A stretch of DNA of 36,283 nt, taken from IMG/VR virus record IMGVR_UViG_2671180456_000012, one strand, 5' to 3'. How positions within the stretch are numbered: the first letter of the stretch is position 1; each line of letters opens with the position of its first letter. This DNA comes from a virus (lineage: Duplodnaviria; Heunggongvirae; Uroviricota; Caudoviricetes). The position numbers and the translations under genes were made by a program. The notes under the pieces are model-generated. The model saw only the letters and a program-made list of their open reading frames with translations. It was not told where the DNA came from and did not search any database. This document shows positions 2,891 to 10,020 of this stretch, piece after piece.

Positions 2891-4450
2891 CTAATCTCGT
2901 TTCAGAACTCCAAAATCGAATGCTCCATCAATAGGCAATACACCTTCTGCAAAGCCAGGTGTGGTGTCGATGATGTGTTTTCGCTCATAAGAGTGAGACA
3001 ACAGGTATTTGTTGCTAATGTCAATGAAATCAGTGATAAAACACACGTTTGCCTGATTTTTTTTGGCTCGTAAGCCACGACCGACACGCTGTCTCATTTC
3101 AACTTCTGCTTTCCCACCACCAGCAAGAATGACCGCACCAACGCTTGGCACATCAACACCAACATCCAGAATAGTCGAGCCTATTAAAACATCTATTTCA
3201 CCAGACGCTAAACTATTCAGCTTTGCTTGCCTTGTCGTCTGGTTAGATTCCCCATAGATGAAATCAACTTTAAGACCTGACTCCTTCATCATCTCCATCA
3301 GGATTTGCCCGTGGCGTTTAAGACGAACCAGAGTCATACAATTGAGAGAATGTTGCTTATAGAGCAATGCTTCGCGCACAATGGCCTCGTTACGTCCCAA
3401 ATTATACACGATCCCCAACTGATAAGCCTTTTGGTAGGCAGTGCTCATACCTACTCTAAAATTGAGGTGTTTGTTGGCAAGTTCTGCCTTGATTCTGACC
3501 TCGTCCGGTTTGTAGGCAACTTTATGATAAAGGAAGTACGGCTTTGCCAGAATGCCTCGATCAATCAGGTACTTTTCTGTGACTTTAATTTCAATTCGCC
3601 CGGCCACCGCCATCAGGCGCATGTTGGCTTCCGTCGAATCCTTCATGAACGGCGTGGCCGTAAGCGCCAGACGATAGTCTGCGTTCACACATAATCTGGC
3701 AATGTCATAGAAATTAGAGCCTGAAGACTCATGCGCTTCTTCCAGAATAAGCAGAGACACACTTGAAAGGAAGCGTTTCACCAACTCCCGACGTTTGAGG
3801 TGGTAGCTCTTTTTATCTGGTGTTGCATCGCGTGGTGGTTCTTCGAGGAAACTTGCAAGAGTTTGAACTGTAGCGACGTTGATATGTCGTGATACCTGGA
3901 ACTCACCCGAGCCAATGACTCCAACCTTTTGGTCTTTTAACCACGGTTCGCCATTTTCGGCGCGGTAGTCGATGGATCTCTGGAAGTTTTCGGCCATTTG
4001 AAACATCAGAACAGAGCGGGTTGTTAAAAATAATGTCATTCGACCGATACGTGCAGCTGCTTTGCAGGCAACGTTAGATTTCCCGCCACCAGTAGCGATC
4101 TGCGCAATCATCATTCCCTCTCGAACCAGTGTTTCCACAGTCTGATCCTGATACGCATAATCAGGATTGTATGGGAATGGGTTAACCGCCGGATTTGGTT
4201 TACCAAGCGCCGGGGCTTTGTCTTTGCGGATATGAACACATTTGATGCCCGCCTTGTTCAAGTTCGCCGCTACAGGCTTGGCAAAGCCAGCAGGGAACGA
4301 GTTTTTACTCCAGTTGAACATCGTGCTTGTGCCCTTCCAGTCGCCAGTCTCGACTTCGTAGCTCAACATCTGTTGCACCATTTGCTTTACCTTGTCATCT
4401 GCGCCAGAAATAAGCGCATTAACTGCGTTAGATACAATCCGAACAGTCAT
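2891..4450 (-). CDS. SF2 DNA/RNA helicase (DEAH-type)
   Basis: 519 aa with Walker A (TGGGKSN), motif II (LILEEAHESS), motif III (TATP) and motif VI (QRVGRGLR); AAGGAAAGAGG SD upstream. Confidence 0.85.
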   Translation of the reverse strand: MTVRIVSNAVNALISGADDKVKQMVQQMLSYEVETGDWKGTSTMFNWSKNSFPAGFAKPVAANLNKAGIKCVHIRKDKAPALGKPNPAVNPFPYNPDYAYQDQTVETLVREGMMIAQIATGGGKSNVACKAAARIGRMTLFLTTRSVLMFQMAENFQRSIDYRAENGEPWLKDQKVGVIGSGEFQVSRHINVATVQTLASFLEEPPRDATPDKKSYHLKRRELVKRFLSSVSLLILEEAHESSGSNFYDIARLCVNADYRLALTATPFMKDSTEANMRLMAVAGRIEIKVTEKYLIDRGILAKPYFLYHKVAYKPDEVRIKAELANKHLNFRVGMSTAYQKAYQLGIVYNLGRNEAIVREALLYKQHSLNCMTLVRLKRHGQILMEMMKESGLKVDFIYGESNQTTRQAKLNSLASGEIDVLIGSTILDVGVDVPSVGAVILAGGGKAEVEMRQRVGRGLRAKKNQANVCFITDFIDISNKYLLSHSYERKHIIDTTPGFAEGVLPIDGAFDFGVLKRD

Positions 4451-4468
4451 AAACCTCTTTCCTTAGTG

Positions 4469-4514
4469 CCTTTTGTATGTTATTTGGCTATTATAATAAG
4501 TAAGTGATTACTTA
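4469..4514. promoter_or_regulatory. Divergent promoter region with overlapping -10 elements and a TAAGTA-N6-TACTTA palindrome
   Basis: ATTATAAT at 4490-4497 reads as TATAAT on both strands. The palindrome taagta(4497-4502)/tactta(4509-4514) is at the predicted rightward start site. Only 64 bp separate the helicase and ParB starts. Confidence 0.35.
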
Positions 4515-5213
4515 GTGGATTGTAGCAATAAAATGGATGTAAAAATCACGATTTTGCAGGTTGATGTTGCCAACCTTCGCCCGAATACCTGGAACACCAA
4601 TTCGGTTGGTGCGCAGAATTTTGAAAAACTGAAAGGTTCTATCGAAAAATTGGGCTTTTTTAAGCCAATTTTGGCTCGTGAACTTGAAGATGGATTTTTT
4701 GAAATCCTCGGCGGCGAACATCGCTGGCGTGCTGCTATTGAGCAAGGAATTTCAACGGTTCCGGTGCTTTCTGTGGGCAAAATTAGCGATGTCGTAGCTA
4801 AACAGATGTCACTGGTGGACAACGAGCGATACGGTGAAGACGACCAAATCGCATTGCAACGCTTCATTGAAGAAATTCAGTCAGAACTTGACTATCAACT
4901 GTCTGAAATCGCCCCGTATGACGACGAAATCTCGATGGTTTTAGCAAAAGAGGCGGCAATCGACCTTGAAGCACTGGAGGCGTTGTCTCGTGGTAGTGAT
5001 GAGCCTGTCGATACCGACAAACGAGAGAAAACCGAACGTGTGGGTGCGGAACATCAGACCATGCGCTTCAAAGTAACTTTCGATGCGTCAGATCGTGTTG
5101 CAGAAACCATAAAAAACATCATCAAAGAGCAGGCTATTAACACCGGTAATGAAATGGAGAACGCTGGTGAGGCTCTGGTGTGGCTGGTCGACTACTACAA
5201 GGAGCGTATGTAA
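4515..5213 (+). CDS. ParB-like nuclease-domain protein 1
   Basis: N-terminal ParB/Srx fold motif (FEILGGEHRWRAAIEQGISTVPV) and an acidic C-terminal half. The track start is GTG at 4515; the ATG at 4533 is an alternative. Confidence 0.8.
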   Translation: MDCSNKMDVKITILQVDVANLRPNTWNTNSVGAQNFEKLKGSIEKLGFFKPILARELEDGFFEILGGEHRWRAAIEQGISTVPVLSVGKISDVVAKQMSLVDNERYGEDDQIALQRFIEEIQSELDYQLSEIAPYDDEISMVLAKEAAIDLEALEALSRGSDEPVDTDKREKTERVGAEHQTMRFKVTFDASDRVAETIKNIIKEQAINTGNEMENAGEALVWLVDYYKERM

Positions 5214-5881
5214 TGACCAAAAAGTTTGAAATCGTATATCGCGACCCGGCAGATCTTATTCCCTATGAGATGAATGCCAAAAAGCATGATGAACAGCAGA
5301 TCCGAGATCTAGCCGCAGCCATTAAAAAGCGCGGATTTGACCAGCCAATTACGGTCGATAAGAACGACGTAATTATTACTGGCCACGGCCGCCGTGAGGC
5401 TGCAATTTTTGCTGGACTTGAGCGCGTACCGGTTATTGTTCGCGATGATCTCAGTGATGACGAGGTTCGTGCGAAGCGCCTTGAAGATAACCGACTTGCC
5501 AGCATTGATTACGATGCAATTAAGCTACAGAAAGAGCTTGAGTCGCTTGTTCTGGACGATATCGAGGTTTTCGGCTTTGAAGAGCGTGAGTTGAATGTTC
5601 TCGTTGGCAGTATGACAGAAGAAATGGACACCGACTCGCTAGTTATCGATCTTGGCGAAGAAACTAAACGACAGAAGGATGAACACACCGAGATCAGTCG
5701 TGAAGTTGCAGCGGAAGAAGTACGTGTTGTCGACGTATTGGGCTTTAAAACGCTCCCTGCTGGCTCTGCCATTGTTGTTGGTGATTTGCTTGCCCACATG
5801 GAAGAAATGACGGGAGAAAGCGGGGTAGACGCATTTGTGGCATATGCGGAGAAGATCTCTTCCGGGGAGATGGCTGCATGA
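5213..5881 (+). CDS. ParB-like nuclease-domain protein 2
   Basis: Motif IITGHGRREAAIFAGLERVPVIV. The ATG at 5213 overlaps the upstream stop (taATGa) with AAGGAG 8 nt upstream; the track ORF 5180..5881 is the same frame with an earlier start. Confidence 0.8.
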   Translation: MTKKFEIVYRDPADLIPYEMNAKKHDEQQIRDLAAAIKKRGFDQPITVDKNDVIITGHGRREAAIFAGLERVPVIVRDDLSDDEVRAKRLEDNRLASIDYDAIKLQKELESLVLDDIEVFGFEERELNVLVGSMTEEMDTDSLVIDLGEETKRQKDEHTEISREVAAEEVRVVDVLGFKTLPAGSAIVVGDLLAHMEEMTGESGVDAFVAYAEKISSGEMAA

Positions 5882-6516
5882 GCAAATACATCATCAACGT
5901 ATCGTTTCAGACACGCGTAAATAAAACCACGCGCACGTTGGAAATCGCTGAGTCGTTCGGGCTTGGTCTGGACGAAAAAGAGTGGACGCTTTACGACAAT
6001 CTGGAGCTGGAAGTGAAGCAGGGCGATGTGGTGTACATCACAGGCCAATCCGGATCCGGCAAATCCGTTGTGCTGCGCGAGTTGCAACGACAGATGAAGG
6101 ATGAAGGGCTGTCTGTAGCCTCCATCGATGATTTTACCTTCGATAATGAGGTTAACGTCATCGATCAGTTGGGCAAAACGACCAGTGATGCGCTTGGGTT
6201 GTTATCTATGGCTGGTCTGAACGATGCATATCTGTTTGTTCGCAAGCCTTCTGAAATGTCAGACGGCCAGAAATATCGTCTCAAGATTGCCAAACTGATT
6301 GAGTCAGGCGCTAAAGTGTGGGCTGCTGACGAGTTCGGGGCTGTTCTAGACCGTGTAACCGCTCAAGTTGTGGCATCTAACCTCCAGCGTGCCGCTCGAA
6401 AGGTTGGTGCGACGGTAATGGTGGCGACGACTCACGAAGACCTGAAGAACGCGCTGCGCCCGGATATGCAGATCACCAAGCACTACAAAGAACGCGTGAA
6501 GGTGGAATATGCCTGA
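5878..6516 (+). CDS. Stand-alone ABC-type ATPase (nucleotide-binding domain only)
   Basis: 212 aa with Walker A (GQSGSGKS), ABC signature-like MSDGQKYR, Walker B with D-loop (VWAADEFGAVLD) and H-loop (VATTHE), at canonical NBD spacing. Start overlaps the upstream stop (ATGA). Confidence 0.75.
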   Translation: MSKYIINVSFQTRVNKTTRTLEIAESFGLGLDEKEWTLYDNLELEVKQGDVVYITGQSGSGKSVVLRELQRQMKDEGLSVASIDDFTFDNEVNVIDQLGKTTSDALGLLSMAGLNDAYLFVRKPSEMSDGQKYRLKIAKLIESGAKVWAADEFGAVLDRVTAQVVASNLQRAARKVGATVMVATTHEDLKNALRPDMQITKHYKERVKVEYA

Positions 6517-6763
6517 TTTGAAGATCGTAGAGCTGAAGCCATCGAAAGAGGCTGACAACAACAACGTTGAAGTCATCCGCCTGCTGGAAGAAGCACTCCA
6601 GTACGCCAGAGAAGGCAAAAGCCAGAGCCTGGCACTGCTGATGATCAACAACGACGGCAGTGTGCTGGATTGCTGGCATAACGGTGGGCGTCCATACGTC
6701 ATGGTTGGGGCGATGGAATCGCTTCGCCTGGACTTCATCAATGCCAATATCGAGCGTAGGTGA
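6509..6763 (+). CDS. Hypothetical small protein (84 aa)
   Basis: Start overlaps the ATPase gene end and its stop overlaps the next gene start, i.e. translationally coupled within the operon. No motif recognised. Confidence 0.55.
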   Translation: MPDLKIVELKPSKEADNNNVEVIRLLEEALQYAREGKSQSLALLMINNDGSVLDCWHNGGRPYVMVGAMESLRLDFINANIERR

Positions 6764-6768
6764 TCGAC

Positions 6769-7659
6769 ATGACAGGCATCATCATCAAACGCTACCGCCC
6801 GGAAGAGTTCCCGCGTCATCTGGACTTTCTGGAGCGTATGACCGTTACCAAAGGCACGGTTGAAGACTGGCACGCGCTGAAGTCGCTGCACTACAAGACG
6901 GATGGTAAGCCGTTTGCGCCAACGTATTATCGCTGCGAACTGGACGACCGGCTGGTGGGCGTCGTGGTTATGGCTTACCCGAAACTGCTGCTGGCGCCTC
7001 GCCATCGCATGTTTCCTAAGCTGAAGCCAACCACCAATACCACCGTGGCCAACCAGTATTGGGGGCGGTACGTGAACAACAACTTTGCGGTGATCAGCCG
7101 TTCCGTTGTGGACACTCAGTACCGCGGTGTCGGCGTCTCCTATCGAATGATTAACCTGGTTAGCAGGATGCACGACCGGCCAATCATTGAGATCCAGTCC
7201 TCGATGAGCAAATACAATCCCTTCGCCATGAAAGCAGGGTTTAAGTTCATCCGCCCTGAGCGACCGAAGAGCTATGAAAGTGCACTGCGTGTATTCCAGC
7301 GCCATTTCCGTTCCGACCCGGGTGATAACGAGGCGATCGTCAAAGAGTTGTTCGCAATGAGCGAGTCTCGTCGTCGCCGTGCATTGCGTGATCTGGTGGC
7401 GGACTACCACAAGAACAGTTCCCTGGCAAAAGCTGGGCGGAATCGTGGCACGACGATTCAGGACATTGCCGACAGTCTGGTGGACGAGGCCAGCATTGTG
7501 AAGCTGCTCAAGGACATTCACAACCTGAGCTTTACGTCTCCGTTGTATGGTGTGTACCGAAACCCTGACTTTGGCCGTCGACTGCCTGACACGCTGCCAC
7601 TGCTGGCATTCGACAAACAACCTTTGGATAAACCGTTAGAAATTGCTTTACCGGCATAA
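6769..7659 (+). CDS. GNAT-fold acyltransferase-like protein with C-terminal extension
   Basis: Motif VISRSVVDTQYRGVGVSYRMINLV resembles GNAT motif A (Q/R-x-x-G-x-G/A). AGGTGA SD 5 nt before the ATG at 6769; the track starts at GTG 6760. Confidence 0.55.
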   Translation: MTGIIIKRYRPEEFPRHLDFLERMTVTKGTVEDWHALKSLHYKTDGKPFAPTYYRCELDDRLVGVVVMAYPKLLLAPRHRMFPKLKPTTNTTVANQYWGRYVNNNFAVISRSVVDTQYRGVGVSYRMINLVSRMHDRPIIEIQSSMSKYNPFAMKAGFKFIRPERPKSYESALRVFQRHFRSDPGDNEAIVKELFAMSESRRRRALRDLVADYHKNSSLAKAGRNRGTTIQDIADSLVDEASIVKLLKDIHNLSFTSPLYGVYRNPDFGRRLPDTLPLLAFDKQPLDKPLEIALPA

Positions 7660-7668
7660 GGATTTGCC

Positions 7669-7935
7669 ATGACGTTAACCGATAAACAAAAGGACATCAT
7701 CAAAACGCTCAATCTCGGTTATGAGCGAGGTCATCTACTTGATCTGGACGAATTGCTTGAAGTTTTGCCGTACAAGACAACCAAGCAAAGTATCCAGTTC
7801 TCAATTCGCGCTCTGATAAAAAAGGGGCTGGTGGAGAAAGGGCATACGCGCCAACGCAGTGACAATCGCTATCACCGCCGAACTCTTGGGTTAACCACTT
7901 TAGGTCGAGCCAAAGCGAAGTTACTGGTGATGTAA
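7669..7935 (+). CDS. Winged-helix DNA-binding protein, putative regulator
   Basis: 88 aa; helix-turn-helix-like core (TTKQSIQFSIRALIKKGLVEK) followed by a basic wing. Last gene before the palindromic region and terS. Confidence 0.5.
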   Translation: MTLTDKQKDIIKTLNLGYERGHLLDLDELLEVLPYKTTKQSIQFSIRALIKKGLVEKGHTRQRSDNRYHRRTLGLTTLGRAKAKLLVM

Positions 7936-7937
7936 TC

Positions 7938-8036
7938 GGTCTGGGAGCTTATTTAAAGACCTGCTTCTGTATATATAAATAATAAGTAACTTATTAAATA
8001 TATACGGAAGCAGGCTTAATAAGACATGCCCAGACC
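7938..8036. repeat. About 100-bp nested imperfect palindrome (candidate pac/ori/operator/bidirectional terminator)
   Basis: Outer arms ggtctggg (7938-7945) / cccagacc (8029-8036); inner arms ctgcttctgtatatata (7961-7977) / tatatacggaagcag (7999-8013) with one mismatch; centre aataagt-a-acttatt (7981-7995). Confidence 0.7.
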
Positions 8037-8131
8037 TAATTAAACACCCCAGAAAACAAGTTGGTTAGCAGATTCAGTAAACAAGTTGTTTTAGAGCGCA
8101 TGGACGCGCTCTGTGTGTTTTAGAGGGATCT

Positions 8132-8764
8132 ATGACGGTCGAAAAAGACGAGGTAAAAACTCGCCTGACACCAGCGGAGTGGGCCGAAGCTGAAGCCAAA
8201 TGGACGTCAGGCGAATATACACTCTCAAAGCTGGAGGAAGAGTACGGCATTCGTCGTGAAACACTCTCCAGACATTTCAAAAAGCGAGGATTAGAGAAAG
8301 GCGCGGACTCTGTTGGGAAGATGGTTCGTGAGTCTCTTAAATCTGACGCAGAGCTTCGCGCTAAAGCCCGTGCGGAAAAGATAGAAGAACGTCGTACACG
8401 TTATGACGGCTGGGCGTATGCGTTGGGGCAGATGGTGATGGTCGAAGTCACTACGGCCAAACGTGAGGGTAAGCCTTTAGGGGCGATTGAGGATTCTCTC
8501 AAGAGCTTACAGAGAGCCAGTAATACCCTTGCAAAATGCTTTGAAGTTTCGTCCAAAGCATTGGGCATGGATCATGCGGAAAATGACGAGGAAGAAATTC
8601 CGAACCTGGTATTTGGTGAGCTTACGCCTTCCCAGGTGGCGAAATTACGTCAGGAAGACGACGAGCCTGAAATCATCGATGACGAATTGCTTGAGACGTT
8701 GGAAGAAGAAGCTCTAAGCGAATTTGATGCGACAGATGATGGAAGTGAAGGGGAGGACGAATAA
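8132..8764 (+). CDS. Terminase small subunit (putative)
   Basis: 210 aa, N-terminal HTH-like segment and highly acidic C-terminus, GAGGG SD, immediately upstream of and overlapping the large terminase start. Confidence 0.65.
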   Translation: MTVEKDEVKTRLTPAEWAEAEAKWTSGEYTLSKLEEEYGIRRETLSRHFKKRGLEKGADSVGKMVRESLKSDAELRAKARAEKIEERRTRYDGWAYALGQMVMVEVTTAKREGKPLGAIEDSLKSLQRASNTLAKCFEVSSKALGMDHAENDEEEIPNLVFGELTPSQVAKLRQEDDEPEIIDDELLETLEEEALSEFDATDDGSEGEDE

Positions 8765-10020
8765 TGGCAATCCCGTCCTCGCTCAGTCTTGTGCAACTGC
8801 ATTCTGGACAGATGAAAGTCTTCCAGTCTCCGCATCGATTTAAAGTTGTTTGTGCTGGTCGACGCTGGGGAAAATCCCGGTTGTCGATCTCCACTATTAT
8901 TCGTGCGGCGGCAAAGGAAAAAAAGCAAAGAGTCTGGTATGTCGCTCCTACTTACCAGATGGCTCGCCAGATTTTGTGGGACGATCTACAGGAAGTTCTG
9001 CCTCGTAAGTGGGTTAGGAAAAAGAACGACACCACGATGACAATCGTGTTGAAGAACGGTTCGGAGATCGCCCTCAAAGGTGCTGATAAGCCTGACACTC
9101 TGCGCGGCGTAGCGTTGCATTTTGTAGTGCTTGATGAATTTCAGGATATGAAGGCTGACACCTGGTACAAGGTGTTACGACCTACTCTTTCATCGACACG
9201 CGGCGGTGCACTGATCATTGGTACGCCAAAAGGCTTCTCGGAATTTCACAAACTGTGGACTATAGGCCAGAACGTAGAGCTGCAAAGAAAGGGACAGTGG
9301 AAGAGCTGGCAGTTTGTAACTGCCGATTCTCCGTTTGTACCTACGGCGGAAATTGAAGCTGCTAAGAACGATATGGACCCGAAATCGTTCGCTCAGGAGT
9401 ACCTGGCGAGCTTTGAGAACATGTCCGGGCGCGTTTACTACCCGTTCGATCGTAACGTGCATGTAAAACCGCTTCAGTTCAACCCTCGGTTGCCTATATG
9501 GGTAGGGCAGGACTTCAACATTGACCCGATGTCTTCAGTAATTTTGCAACCTCAGCCAAATGGTGAGCTATGGGCAATTGATGAATTGGTGCTCTTTTCC
9601 TCTAACACGGCAGAGGTTTGTGATGAGCTTGAGAGACGCTTCTGGCGCTGGAAATCACAGATAACGGTATTTCCAGATCCGGCAGGTGCTTATCGCCAAC
9701 ATGCTCGCGGGGAGTCTGACGTCGACATATTCAAAGAGAAGGGATTCTTACGTGTCGATTATTCGAAAAAGCACCCGCCAATTGCGGATCGTGTTAATGC
9801 TGTTAACCGAATGCTGATGACCGCATCTGGAGATATCCGGCTGTATATCGATCCGAAGTGCAAGCATTTGATTGATTCACTGGAAAAAGTCATCTACAAG
9901 CCTGGAACACGAGATATGGATAAGACAGGTGGCATTGAGCATAGTGCAGACGCATTGGGCTATCCAGTACATCGTAGGTATCCAGTCAAAAACCGTGTTA
10001 TTCTTGGTGGTTCTCGATAG
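8764..10020 (+). CDS. Terminase large subunit
   Basis: 418 aa; Walker A-like VVCAGRRWGKSRL near the N-terminus, Walker B-like hydrophobic stretch ending in DE (LHFVVLDEF), and a C-terminal nuclease-like region. Position between terS and portal. Confidence 0.85.
   Translation: MAIPSSLSLVQLHSGQMKVFQSPHRFKVVCAGRRWGKSRLSISTIIRAAAKEKKQRVWYVAPTYQMARQILWDDLQEVLPRKWVRKKNDTTMTIVLKNGSEIALKGADKPDTLRGVALHFVVLDEFQDMKADTWYKVLRPTLSSTRGGALIIGTPKGFSEFHKLWTIGQNVELQRKGQWKSWQFVTADSPFVPTAEIEAAKNDMDPKSFAQEYLASFENMSGRVYYPFDRNVHVKPLQFNPRLPIWVGQDFNIDPMSSVILQPQPNGELWAIDELVLFSSNTAEVCDELERRFWRWKSQITVFPDPAGAYRQHARGESDVDIFKEKGFLRVDYSKKHPPIADRVNAVNRMLMTASGDIRLYIDPKCKHLIDSLEKVIYKPGTRDMDKTGGIEHSADALGYPVHRRYPVKNRVILGGSR

Follow-up and report, generated by a model that had tools for sequence, protein, structure and literature searches.

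A split ABC ATPase-GNAT enzyme with a cargo slot at its split point in an SSU5-like phage-plasmid: a candidate cassette for nucleic-acid acylation

INTRODUCTION

What does a phage do with a GNAT-like protein that is encoded directly behind a very small gene? This question is raised by positions 6509 to 7659 of a 36,283-nucleotide (nt) stretch of Caudoviricetes DNA (IMG/VR record IMGVR_UViG_2671180456_000012; "the window" denotes this whole stretch), where a gene for a protein of 84 amino acids (aa) precedes a gene for a much larger GNAT-like protein. A first reading of the DNA letters and their translations (the sequence-only reading) had proposed that the two genes form a pair, either a toxin with its antitoxin or a transferase resembling Mom of phage Mu. 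Here we report that the larger protein is one half, the GNAT-fold acyltransferase, of a split enzyme whose other half is an ABC-type ATPase, and that the 84-aa gene is optional cargo sitting exactly at the split point of this enzyme and is not an antitoxin. We are highly confident of this anatomy, that is, of the GNAT fold, the ABC partner, and the cargo status of the small gene. The activity is a prediction from sequence that could equally well prove right or wrong, namely that the genes belong to a late-expressed cassette for the ATP-dependent acyl modification of nucleic acids, probably DNA, whose split point holds a cargo slot.

RESULTS

The larger protein has a GNAT fold and begins at a conserved ATG

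Both open reading frames (ORFs) of the proposed pair, 6509-6763 (84 aa) and 6760-7659 (299 aa when read from a GTG), are real and represent conserved protein families. At E ≤ 1e-3 the GNAT protein has 492 database matches, and its match to phrog_886 reaches 3.6e-165; the 84-aa protein has 56 database matches and falls in phrog_796 (1.2e-46), and its family is restricted to Enterobacterales. The overlap between the stop of the small gene and the start of the larger one had to be given up, since it requires the GTG at 6760, whereas the conserved start is the ATG at 6769, which yields a 296-aa protein. Database cluster P0001 (1192 member sequences) has this length, the annotation of Salmonella phage SSU5 begins at the equivalent ATG, and in relatives that lack the 84-aa gene the equivalent ATG overlaps the stop of the ABC ATPase gene as ATGA, with unrelated sequence upstream of it. 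Because the conserved start is ATG 6769, 5 nt separate the stop codon of the small gene (6761-6763) from the GNAT gene, whose ribosome-binding site is likely AGGTGA.

The mixed alpha/beta fold of the larger protein is that of GNAT enzymes. Its core spans approximately nt 6826-7263 and is followed by a helical C-terminal domain (approximately nt 7264-7656), whose last conserved strand, LYGVYxNPD, returns beside the core; this domain makes up the extra length that had rightly been noticed in comparison with known GNAT toxins. The YRGVGVS segment, also correctly recognized, corresponds to residues 118-124 of the 296-aa protein, and its R119 and G122 are invariant in 59 homologues. The motif A pattern Q/R-x-x-G-x-G/A is matched by R119-G-V-G122-V-S124, with a serine in the final position, and the fused relatives described below carry the canonical forms RGIGLG (alignment A3) and QGAGVG (alignment A5). 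Further conserved residues of catalytic type are H41-Y42, E141, and Y260, and the protein is strongly basic (isoelectric point [pI] 9.9, net charge +16). Neither the GNAT protein nor the 84-aa protein had a match in NCBIfam or PADLOC, and a PDB sequence search with the GNAT family profile returned nothing relevant.

Among the structural matches listed for this protein, the GNAT toxin 7byy_A ranked 49th. A Foldseek search against viral models placed Mom of a Salmonella phage at rank 4 and also returned several "endonuclease-like" proteins of 550-700 aa and a GNAT protein of Leptospira phage LE4; Mom and Mom-nuclease-like fusions are thus among the best viral structural matches. This likeness to Mom is one of fold and not of family membership, because profile comparison with Mu Mom was not significant (hhalign, 0.2% with alignment A1 and 2.1% with alignment A3), and no Mom-type Pfam family was matched. 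What stands of the proposed Mom-like transferase is a functional analogy. Mom of Mu (PDB 8bv8) is likewise a GNAT-fold enzyme, one that modifies adenine in DNA, but it works without an ABC ATPase or ParB partner and depends on the zinc-finger activator Com. We considered a Com/Mom-like pair in the window and rejected it, as the 84-aa protein has no zinc-finger pattern and is dispensable and the conserved ATG leaves no overlap between the two genes.

An ABC ATPase is the true partner of the GNAT protein

The conserved partner of the GNAT gene is not the 84-aa gene, as had been supposed, but the ABC ATPase gene one position further upstream, which had been missed. Its product retains a complete set of ABC ATPase motifs (Walker A GQSGSGKS, signature SDGQ, Walker B DEF, D-loop, and H-loop). 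When 1.84 billion representatives were searched with the GNAT family profile, 966 relatives (representative clusters) were found, many of which are 450-500 aa long and have the GNAT part at the C terminus; an ABC_tran domain lay N-terminal to it in all 10 long relatives tested. These fused proteins were found by the GNAT profile at 7e-29 and better, and they share the invariant H-Y, R, R..G, E, M, and Y positions of the window protein. One of them, P0212, aligns in two pieces, with the ABC and the GNAT genes of Escherichia phage Cyrano and of SSU5, and phrog_11143 likewise matches both halves. In 20 close relatives with nothing between the two genes, the ABC stop and the GNAT start overlap as ATGA. 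The JGI and Cyrano records give the GNAT half the COG2401 name [quoted passage not shown]

Because the fusions are colinear with both genes and the ABC half keeps all catalytic motifs, we conclude that the window encodes a split ATPase-GNAT enzyme, of which the 296-aa protein is the predicted transferase. The split version is a new member of the computationally known ABC-ATPase/GNAT family (COG2401), whose GNAT and ABC parts are homologous to the window proteins and which also occurs in phages. It differs from the COG2401 fusions in being divided between two genes with a slot for accessory genes between the halves, and in having two ParB-like genes, but no formyltransferase, as neighbours; for the family as a whole, the activity is itself a prediction.

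The 84-aa gene is optional cargo

What occupies the slot was determined in 80 IMG/VR loci whose GNAT protein is 80 to 100% identical to that of the window. The 84-aa gene is found in 38 of them and is absent from 42, 20 of which have nothing between the ABC and GNAT genes and 22 of which have an unrelated gene there, whose product of about 183 aa contains a HEALH motif (zincin-like). The ABC protein of the empty-slot version has 10 additional C-terminal codons. Distant relatives carry other genes or none: a 51-bp gap without an ORF of at least 50 aa in locus L003, three different small genes in L002 (Phage_gp49_66 and RyR-domain proteins among them), a 111-aa gene in Pseudomonas phage nickie, and a DUF2829 (Tad2-family) gene with two small genes in Rhizobium phage RHph_N1_15. 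The anti-Thoeris protein Tad2 carries the DUF2829 domain (bioRxiv 10.1101/2023.05.01.538930). The gap between the ABC and GNAT halves may be a hotspot for anti-defence genes.

The family of the 84-aa protein is also encoded among the head and tail genes of Klebsiella prophages, where no GNAT gene lies nearby. The model of the protein, of moderate confidence, has an alpha-beta-beta-alpha topology without a significant fold match; no family match and no DUF1778 or ribbon-helix-helix (RHH) signature was found for it, and C55 is its only nearly invariant cysteine. Since the slot varies among relatives and the 84-aa family exists without GNAT genes, an obligate toxin-antitoxin pair is excluded.

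The cassette lies directly upstream of the terminase genes of a phage-plasmid

With 97-98% identity to Escherichia phages Cyrano and CMS-2020a and 87% to SSU5, the region marks the window as an SSU5-like phage-plasmid. Of 5,426 complete E. coli genomes, 242 (approximately 4.5%) carry the same 1.8-kb stretch, there on plasmids of about 106-113 kb, with no chromosomal copies. The genes of the cassette (Table 1) are co-oriented and tightly packed directly upstream of the terminase genes; from the first ParB-like gene through the 88-aa gene, neighbours overlap or lie no more than 9 nt apart, and the sole real gap is 7936-8131.

Table 1. Positions of the cassette genes in the window and of related features in other loci (L and P numbers are our handles for loci and proteins)
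Feature	Sequence	Position (nt)	Strand	Match or remark
Divergent helicase	window	2891-4450	-	
ParB-like protein 1, 232 aa, motif GGEHRWRAA	window	4515-5213	+	ParB_N; Pfam ParB_N 3.3e-13; phrog_723 2e-79; opens the cassette
ParB-like protein 2, motif GHGRREAA	window	5213-5881	+	Pfam ParB_N 1.5e-8; phrog_930 1.2e-112
ABC-type ATPase, 212 aa	window	5878-6516	+	Pfam ABC_tran 5.3e-13; PDB ABC nucleotide-binding domains ~1e-13
84-aa acidic protein	window	6509-6763	+	phrog_796
GNAT-fold acyltransferase half, 296 aa	window	6769-7659	+	phrog_886
Motif A YRGVGVS (acyl-CoA pyrophosphate-binding loop)	window	7120-7140	+	after strand beta4
88-aa basic protein	window	7669-7935	+	phrog_900; weak LexA/Lrs14-type helix-turn-helix (winged-helix) matches
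Small-terminase-like (TerS-like) DNA-binding protein; large terminase (TerL)	window	8132-8764; 8764-10020	+	phrog_867; Pfam Terminase_6N/6C
Slot between ABC and GNAT genes	window	6511-6768		
	L062	7447-8004		
	L255	4082-4937		
	L002	6961-7999		
	L167	5576-5911		
Polymerase-linked or intein cases	P0222, P0233, P0249			
	L135	4336-9365		
	L147	7974-11827		
	L089	7995-13653		
Formyl_trans_N gene	L169	1805-2452		Gordonia phage Shatter gene 3
	L171	5044-5658		
	L173	5023-5496		
ASCH-domain gene	L168	5981-6358		
	L108	9675-10022	-	
	L284	5407-5922	-	

ParB-like protein 1 is kept at the same place in L002, L003, phage nickie, and Rhizobium phage RHph_N1_15. The ORF of ParB-like protein 2 extends from a GTG at 5180, and the ATG at 5213 agrees with the SSU5 annotation. 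This second protein resembles the N-terminal ParB domain of ParB-methyltransferase fusions, matching the N-terminal part of phrog_498 ("DNA methyltransferase") and the N-terminal part of PADLOC MTase_II (2.7e-17). Such fusions are encoded upstream of phage terminases and, like the window cassette, place a ParB N-terminal domain and a DNA-modifying module at the start of a late or packaging operon; in the window the module is ABC-GNAT and not an S-adenosylmethionine-dependent methyltransferase, and ParB is a separate protein.

Downstream of the GNAT gene, the 88-aa gene is present in 79 of the 80 close relatives and also in L002 and L003, making it a far steadier neighbour than the 84-aa gene; its basic product is possibly a member of the cassette or a packaging factor. 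A scan of 4300-8300 for promoters and terminators found no excess over the shuffled expectation. An 8-bp GC-rich hairpin with a T-rich tail at 8092-8113 lies in the gap between the 88-aa and TerS-like genes, within a scan that overall did not rise above chance. A 424-aa ORF on the opposite strand (6346-7620) crosses the 84-aa and GNAT genes and is probably a by-product of codon composition. Elsewhere in the window, a full-length homologue of FljA ("repressor of phase-1 flagellin") is encoded on the minus strand at 1590-2192 (Pfam Flag1_repress, E 2.5e-84), and SSU5 has the same gene.

ABC-GNAT genes recur beside terminase, polymerase, and formyltransferase genes

A first IMG/VR scan gave relatives of at least 80% identity, and two further scans were run with the fused subfamilies. 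ParB together with split or fused ABC-GNAT beside TerL recurs across phages of five bacterial phyla. The order ParB, ABC-GNAT, terminase is found in phage nickie and in Rhizobium phages including RHph_N1_15 (all of the same supergroup), in Streptococcus prophage 315.4, in genes 1-4 of Gordonia phage Shatter, in Leptospira phage LE4, and in Planctomycetota prophages, some of which again have a split enzyme. Among 80 loci of a lineage found in Bathyarchaeia genomes, 52 have TerL directly upstream of ABC-GNAT. In this lineage (many of L092-L166), the contig very often ends with the fused gene that follows TerL, and where the sequence goes on, variable genes come next (integrase, restriction-modification, radical SAM).

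In other loci, ABC-GNAT genes stand directly beside genes for DNA polymerases of family B, family A (UDG-PolA), or family C (PolIII-alpha). PolB-ABC-GNAT fusion proteins exist, and the ABC ATPase of one relative contains a LAGLIDADG intein.

A short ABC-GNAT subfamily, with 53-57% identity among Burkholderia, Gordonia, and Porphyromonas phages, has a Formyl_trans_N gene immediately downstream in 54 of 61 IMG/VR loci and ParB upstream in 29 of 71. Gene 3 of Shatter, annotated as "tRNA-methyltransferase," is one of these Formyl_trans_N genes (E 1e-8). In the Mu-like phage phiE255, the ABC-GNAT/formyltransferase pair follows the tail-fibre genes, where Mu has com-mom, and in Mu-like and Porphyromonas phages the cassette lies after tail genes and away from the terminase genes. 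Finally, three unrelated loci have an ASCH-domain gene next to an ABC/GNAT cassette. One ASCH protein, YqfB, is an amidohydrolase that hydrolyses N4-acetylcytidine, and these neighbours hint at N-acyl-cytosine chemistry.

DISCUSSION

Nucleic-acid modification as the predicted activity

ABC-ATPase-GNAT proteins (COG2401) were reportedly predicted to acylate a DNA base by Iyer, Zhang, Burroughs, and Aravind in 2013. In Iyer et al. 2021 (PMC7824862), a GNAT coupled to an ABC ATPase is likewise described as predicted to place an acyl group of uncharacterised kind on a DNA base, and Tenacibaculum phage pT24 is named; our fused ABC-GNAT query matches this phage. No functional study came to light in a literature search on COG2401, ABC-GNAT fusions, and SSU5 in combination with ParB or acetyltransferase, and a paper on SSU5-like plasmids of K. 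pneumoniae makes no mention of a ParB/ABC/GNAT cassette.

In our data, the features that we take as links to modification and to DNA are the formyltransferase genes, the mom position in phiE255, the DNA polymerases, the ASCH-domain genes, the likeness of ParB-like protein 2 to methyltransferase-associated ParB domains, the pI of the GNAT half, and the Mom and Mom-nuclease-like fusions among its viral structural matches. We judge the chances that the enzyme modifies nucleic acids to be evenly balanced, and somewhat lower that DNA, instead of RNA or protein, is its target. In such a scheme, ABC domains would dimerise on ATP, ParB-like proteins with a predicted NTP-binding or nuclease fold would engage the phage DNA, and the basic GNAT domain, with acyl-CoA or a similar donor, would acylate the exocyclic amine of a nucleobase. 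The acylation would fall on replicated phage DNA about the time of packaging, late in infection, and might shield it from restriction as Mom does for Mu, with an ATP dependence such as that of TmcA for RNA.

Several observations weigh against this proposal. The last motif A position of the window protein is a serine instead of glycine or alanine, and its generic GNAT matches include many protein N-acetyltransferases with equal Z scores. Searches of the Bathyarchaeia-type lineage for ParB with phmmer and a custom hidden Markov model found it absent, with one weak match. The SSU5 lineage has no formyltransferase, so its chemistry may differ from that of the formyltransferase-linked subfamily, and we found no publication that describes modified DNA in SSU5-like phages. 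A place beside terminase or polymerase genes could also stem from a role in packaging or replication, or simply from lying at a module boundary. The most specific version of the proposal is correspondingly tentative, and we consider it rather doubtful as a whole: SSU5-like phage-plasmids would make an undescribed ATP-dependent acyl modification of their DNA at packaging through a ParB-guided split ABC-ATPase/GNAT enzyme, the gap between whose halves would be a hotspot for anti-defence cargo, with the 84-aa protein as an anti-defence candidate.

Other roles for the enzyme

The best placed of the alternatives, although an unlikely one, is that the enzyme acylates a phage or host protein. Its substrate might be a factor in packaging or replication, the ParB-like proteins, or a protein of host defence or transcription, and parallels would be Rac of phiKMV-like phages and Eco1, which acts on the ABC head of SMC3. 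Protein acetylation would agree with the generic matches mentioned above, but it leaves unexplained why formyltransferase, ASCH, and methyltransferase-fusion-type ParB genes and DNA polymerase coupling recur around the enzyme, and why a Mu-like phage carries it at the position equivalent to mom.

TmcA/NAT10 enzymes combine a GNAT domain with an NTPase for ATP-dependent acyl transfer to a nucleobase, a likeness that is one of analogy. An RNA or tRNA acetyltransferase of this kind, making N4-acetylcytidine by an ATPase-driven GNAT domain, would share the logic of NTPase plus GNAT, and the ASCH-domain neighbours and the basic GNAT protein are in line with it. We nevertheless think it improbable. 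TmcA/NAT10 enzymes have a RecD-like helicase domain, act on tRNA or rRNA, and show no sequence relationship to the window enzyme, in which neither a RecD-type helicase/ATPase nor a tRNA-binding domain was detected and whose ATPase is an ABC nucleotide-binding domain (ABC_tran); no tRNA genes were found in the window, and the ParB, terminase, and polymerase links favour DNA.

Equally improbable in our view is that the proteins are structural or regulatory accessories of packaging or replication, in which case the GNAT domain would not modify bases and the proteins might, for example, handle pac sites or DNA ends alongside the ParB-like nucleases. Terminases are known to have accessory nucleases as partners, HNH proteins among them, and the genes are co-oriented beside TerS/TerL in many lineages and stand beside polymerases in others. 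Against such a role, the invariant residues of the acyl-CoA loop together with H41-Y42, E141, and Y260 would favour an active transferase, and the Mu-like and Porphyromonas cassettes are located away from the terminase genes.

Least of all can we favour a type II toxin-antitoxin system, with the GNAT protein acetylating aminoacyl-tRNA and the 84-aa protein as its antitoxin, which we regard as extremely improbable: the window shares a GNAT fold and a small upstream gene with TacAT, AtaRT, KacAT, and ItaRT, but those toxins are compact single-domain proteins of about 160-180 aa, whereas the window protein has an additional C-terminal domain and an ABC partner to which it is fused elsewhere, and the small gene neither encodes an RHH/DUF1778 antitoxin nor co-occurs obligately with the GNAT gene.

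Implications

The ABC-ATPase/GNAT family, with DNA base acylation as its computational prediction since 2013, is widespread in viruses of bacteria and archaea, with at least 560 IMG/VR loci per subfamily scan in addition to the 966 representative clusters. Labels in current records can be corrected, as the GNAT half is called "ABC transporter ATP-binding subunit" or "hypothetical protein" and the formyltransferase of Shatter bears a methyltransferase name. The window offers a clean split version in a phage-plasmid found in E. coli, Salmonella, and Klebsiella, and because the cassette is carried on plasmids in so many E. coli genomes, genetics and nucleoside mass spectrometry should be easy, with the natural variants that have or lack the 84-aa cargo gene serving as ready controls.

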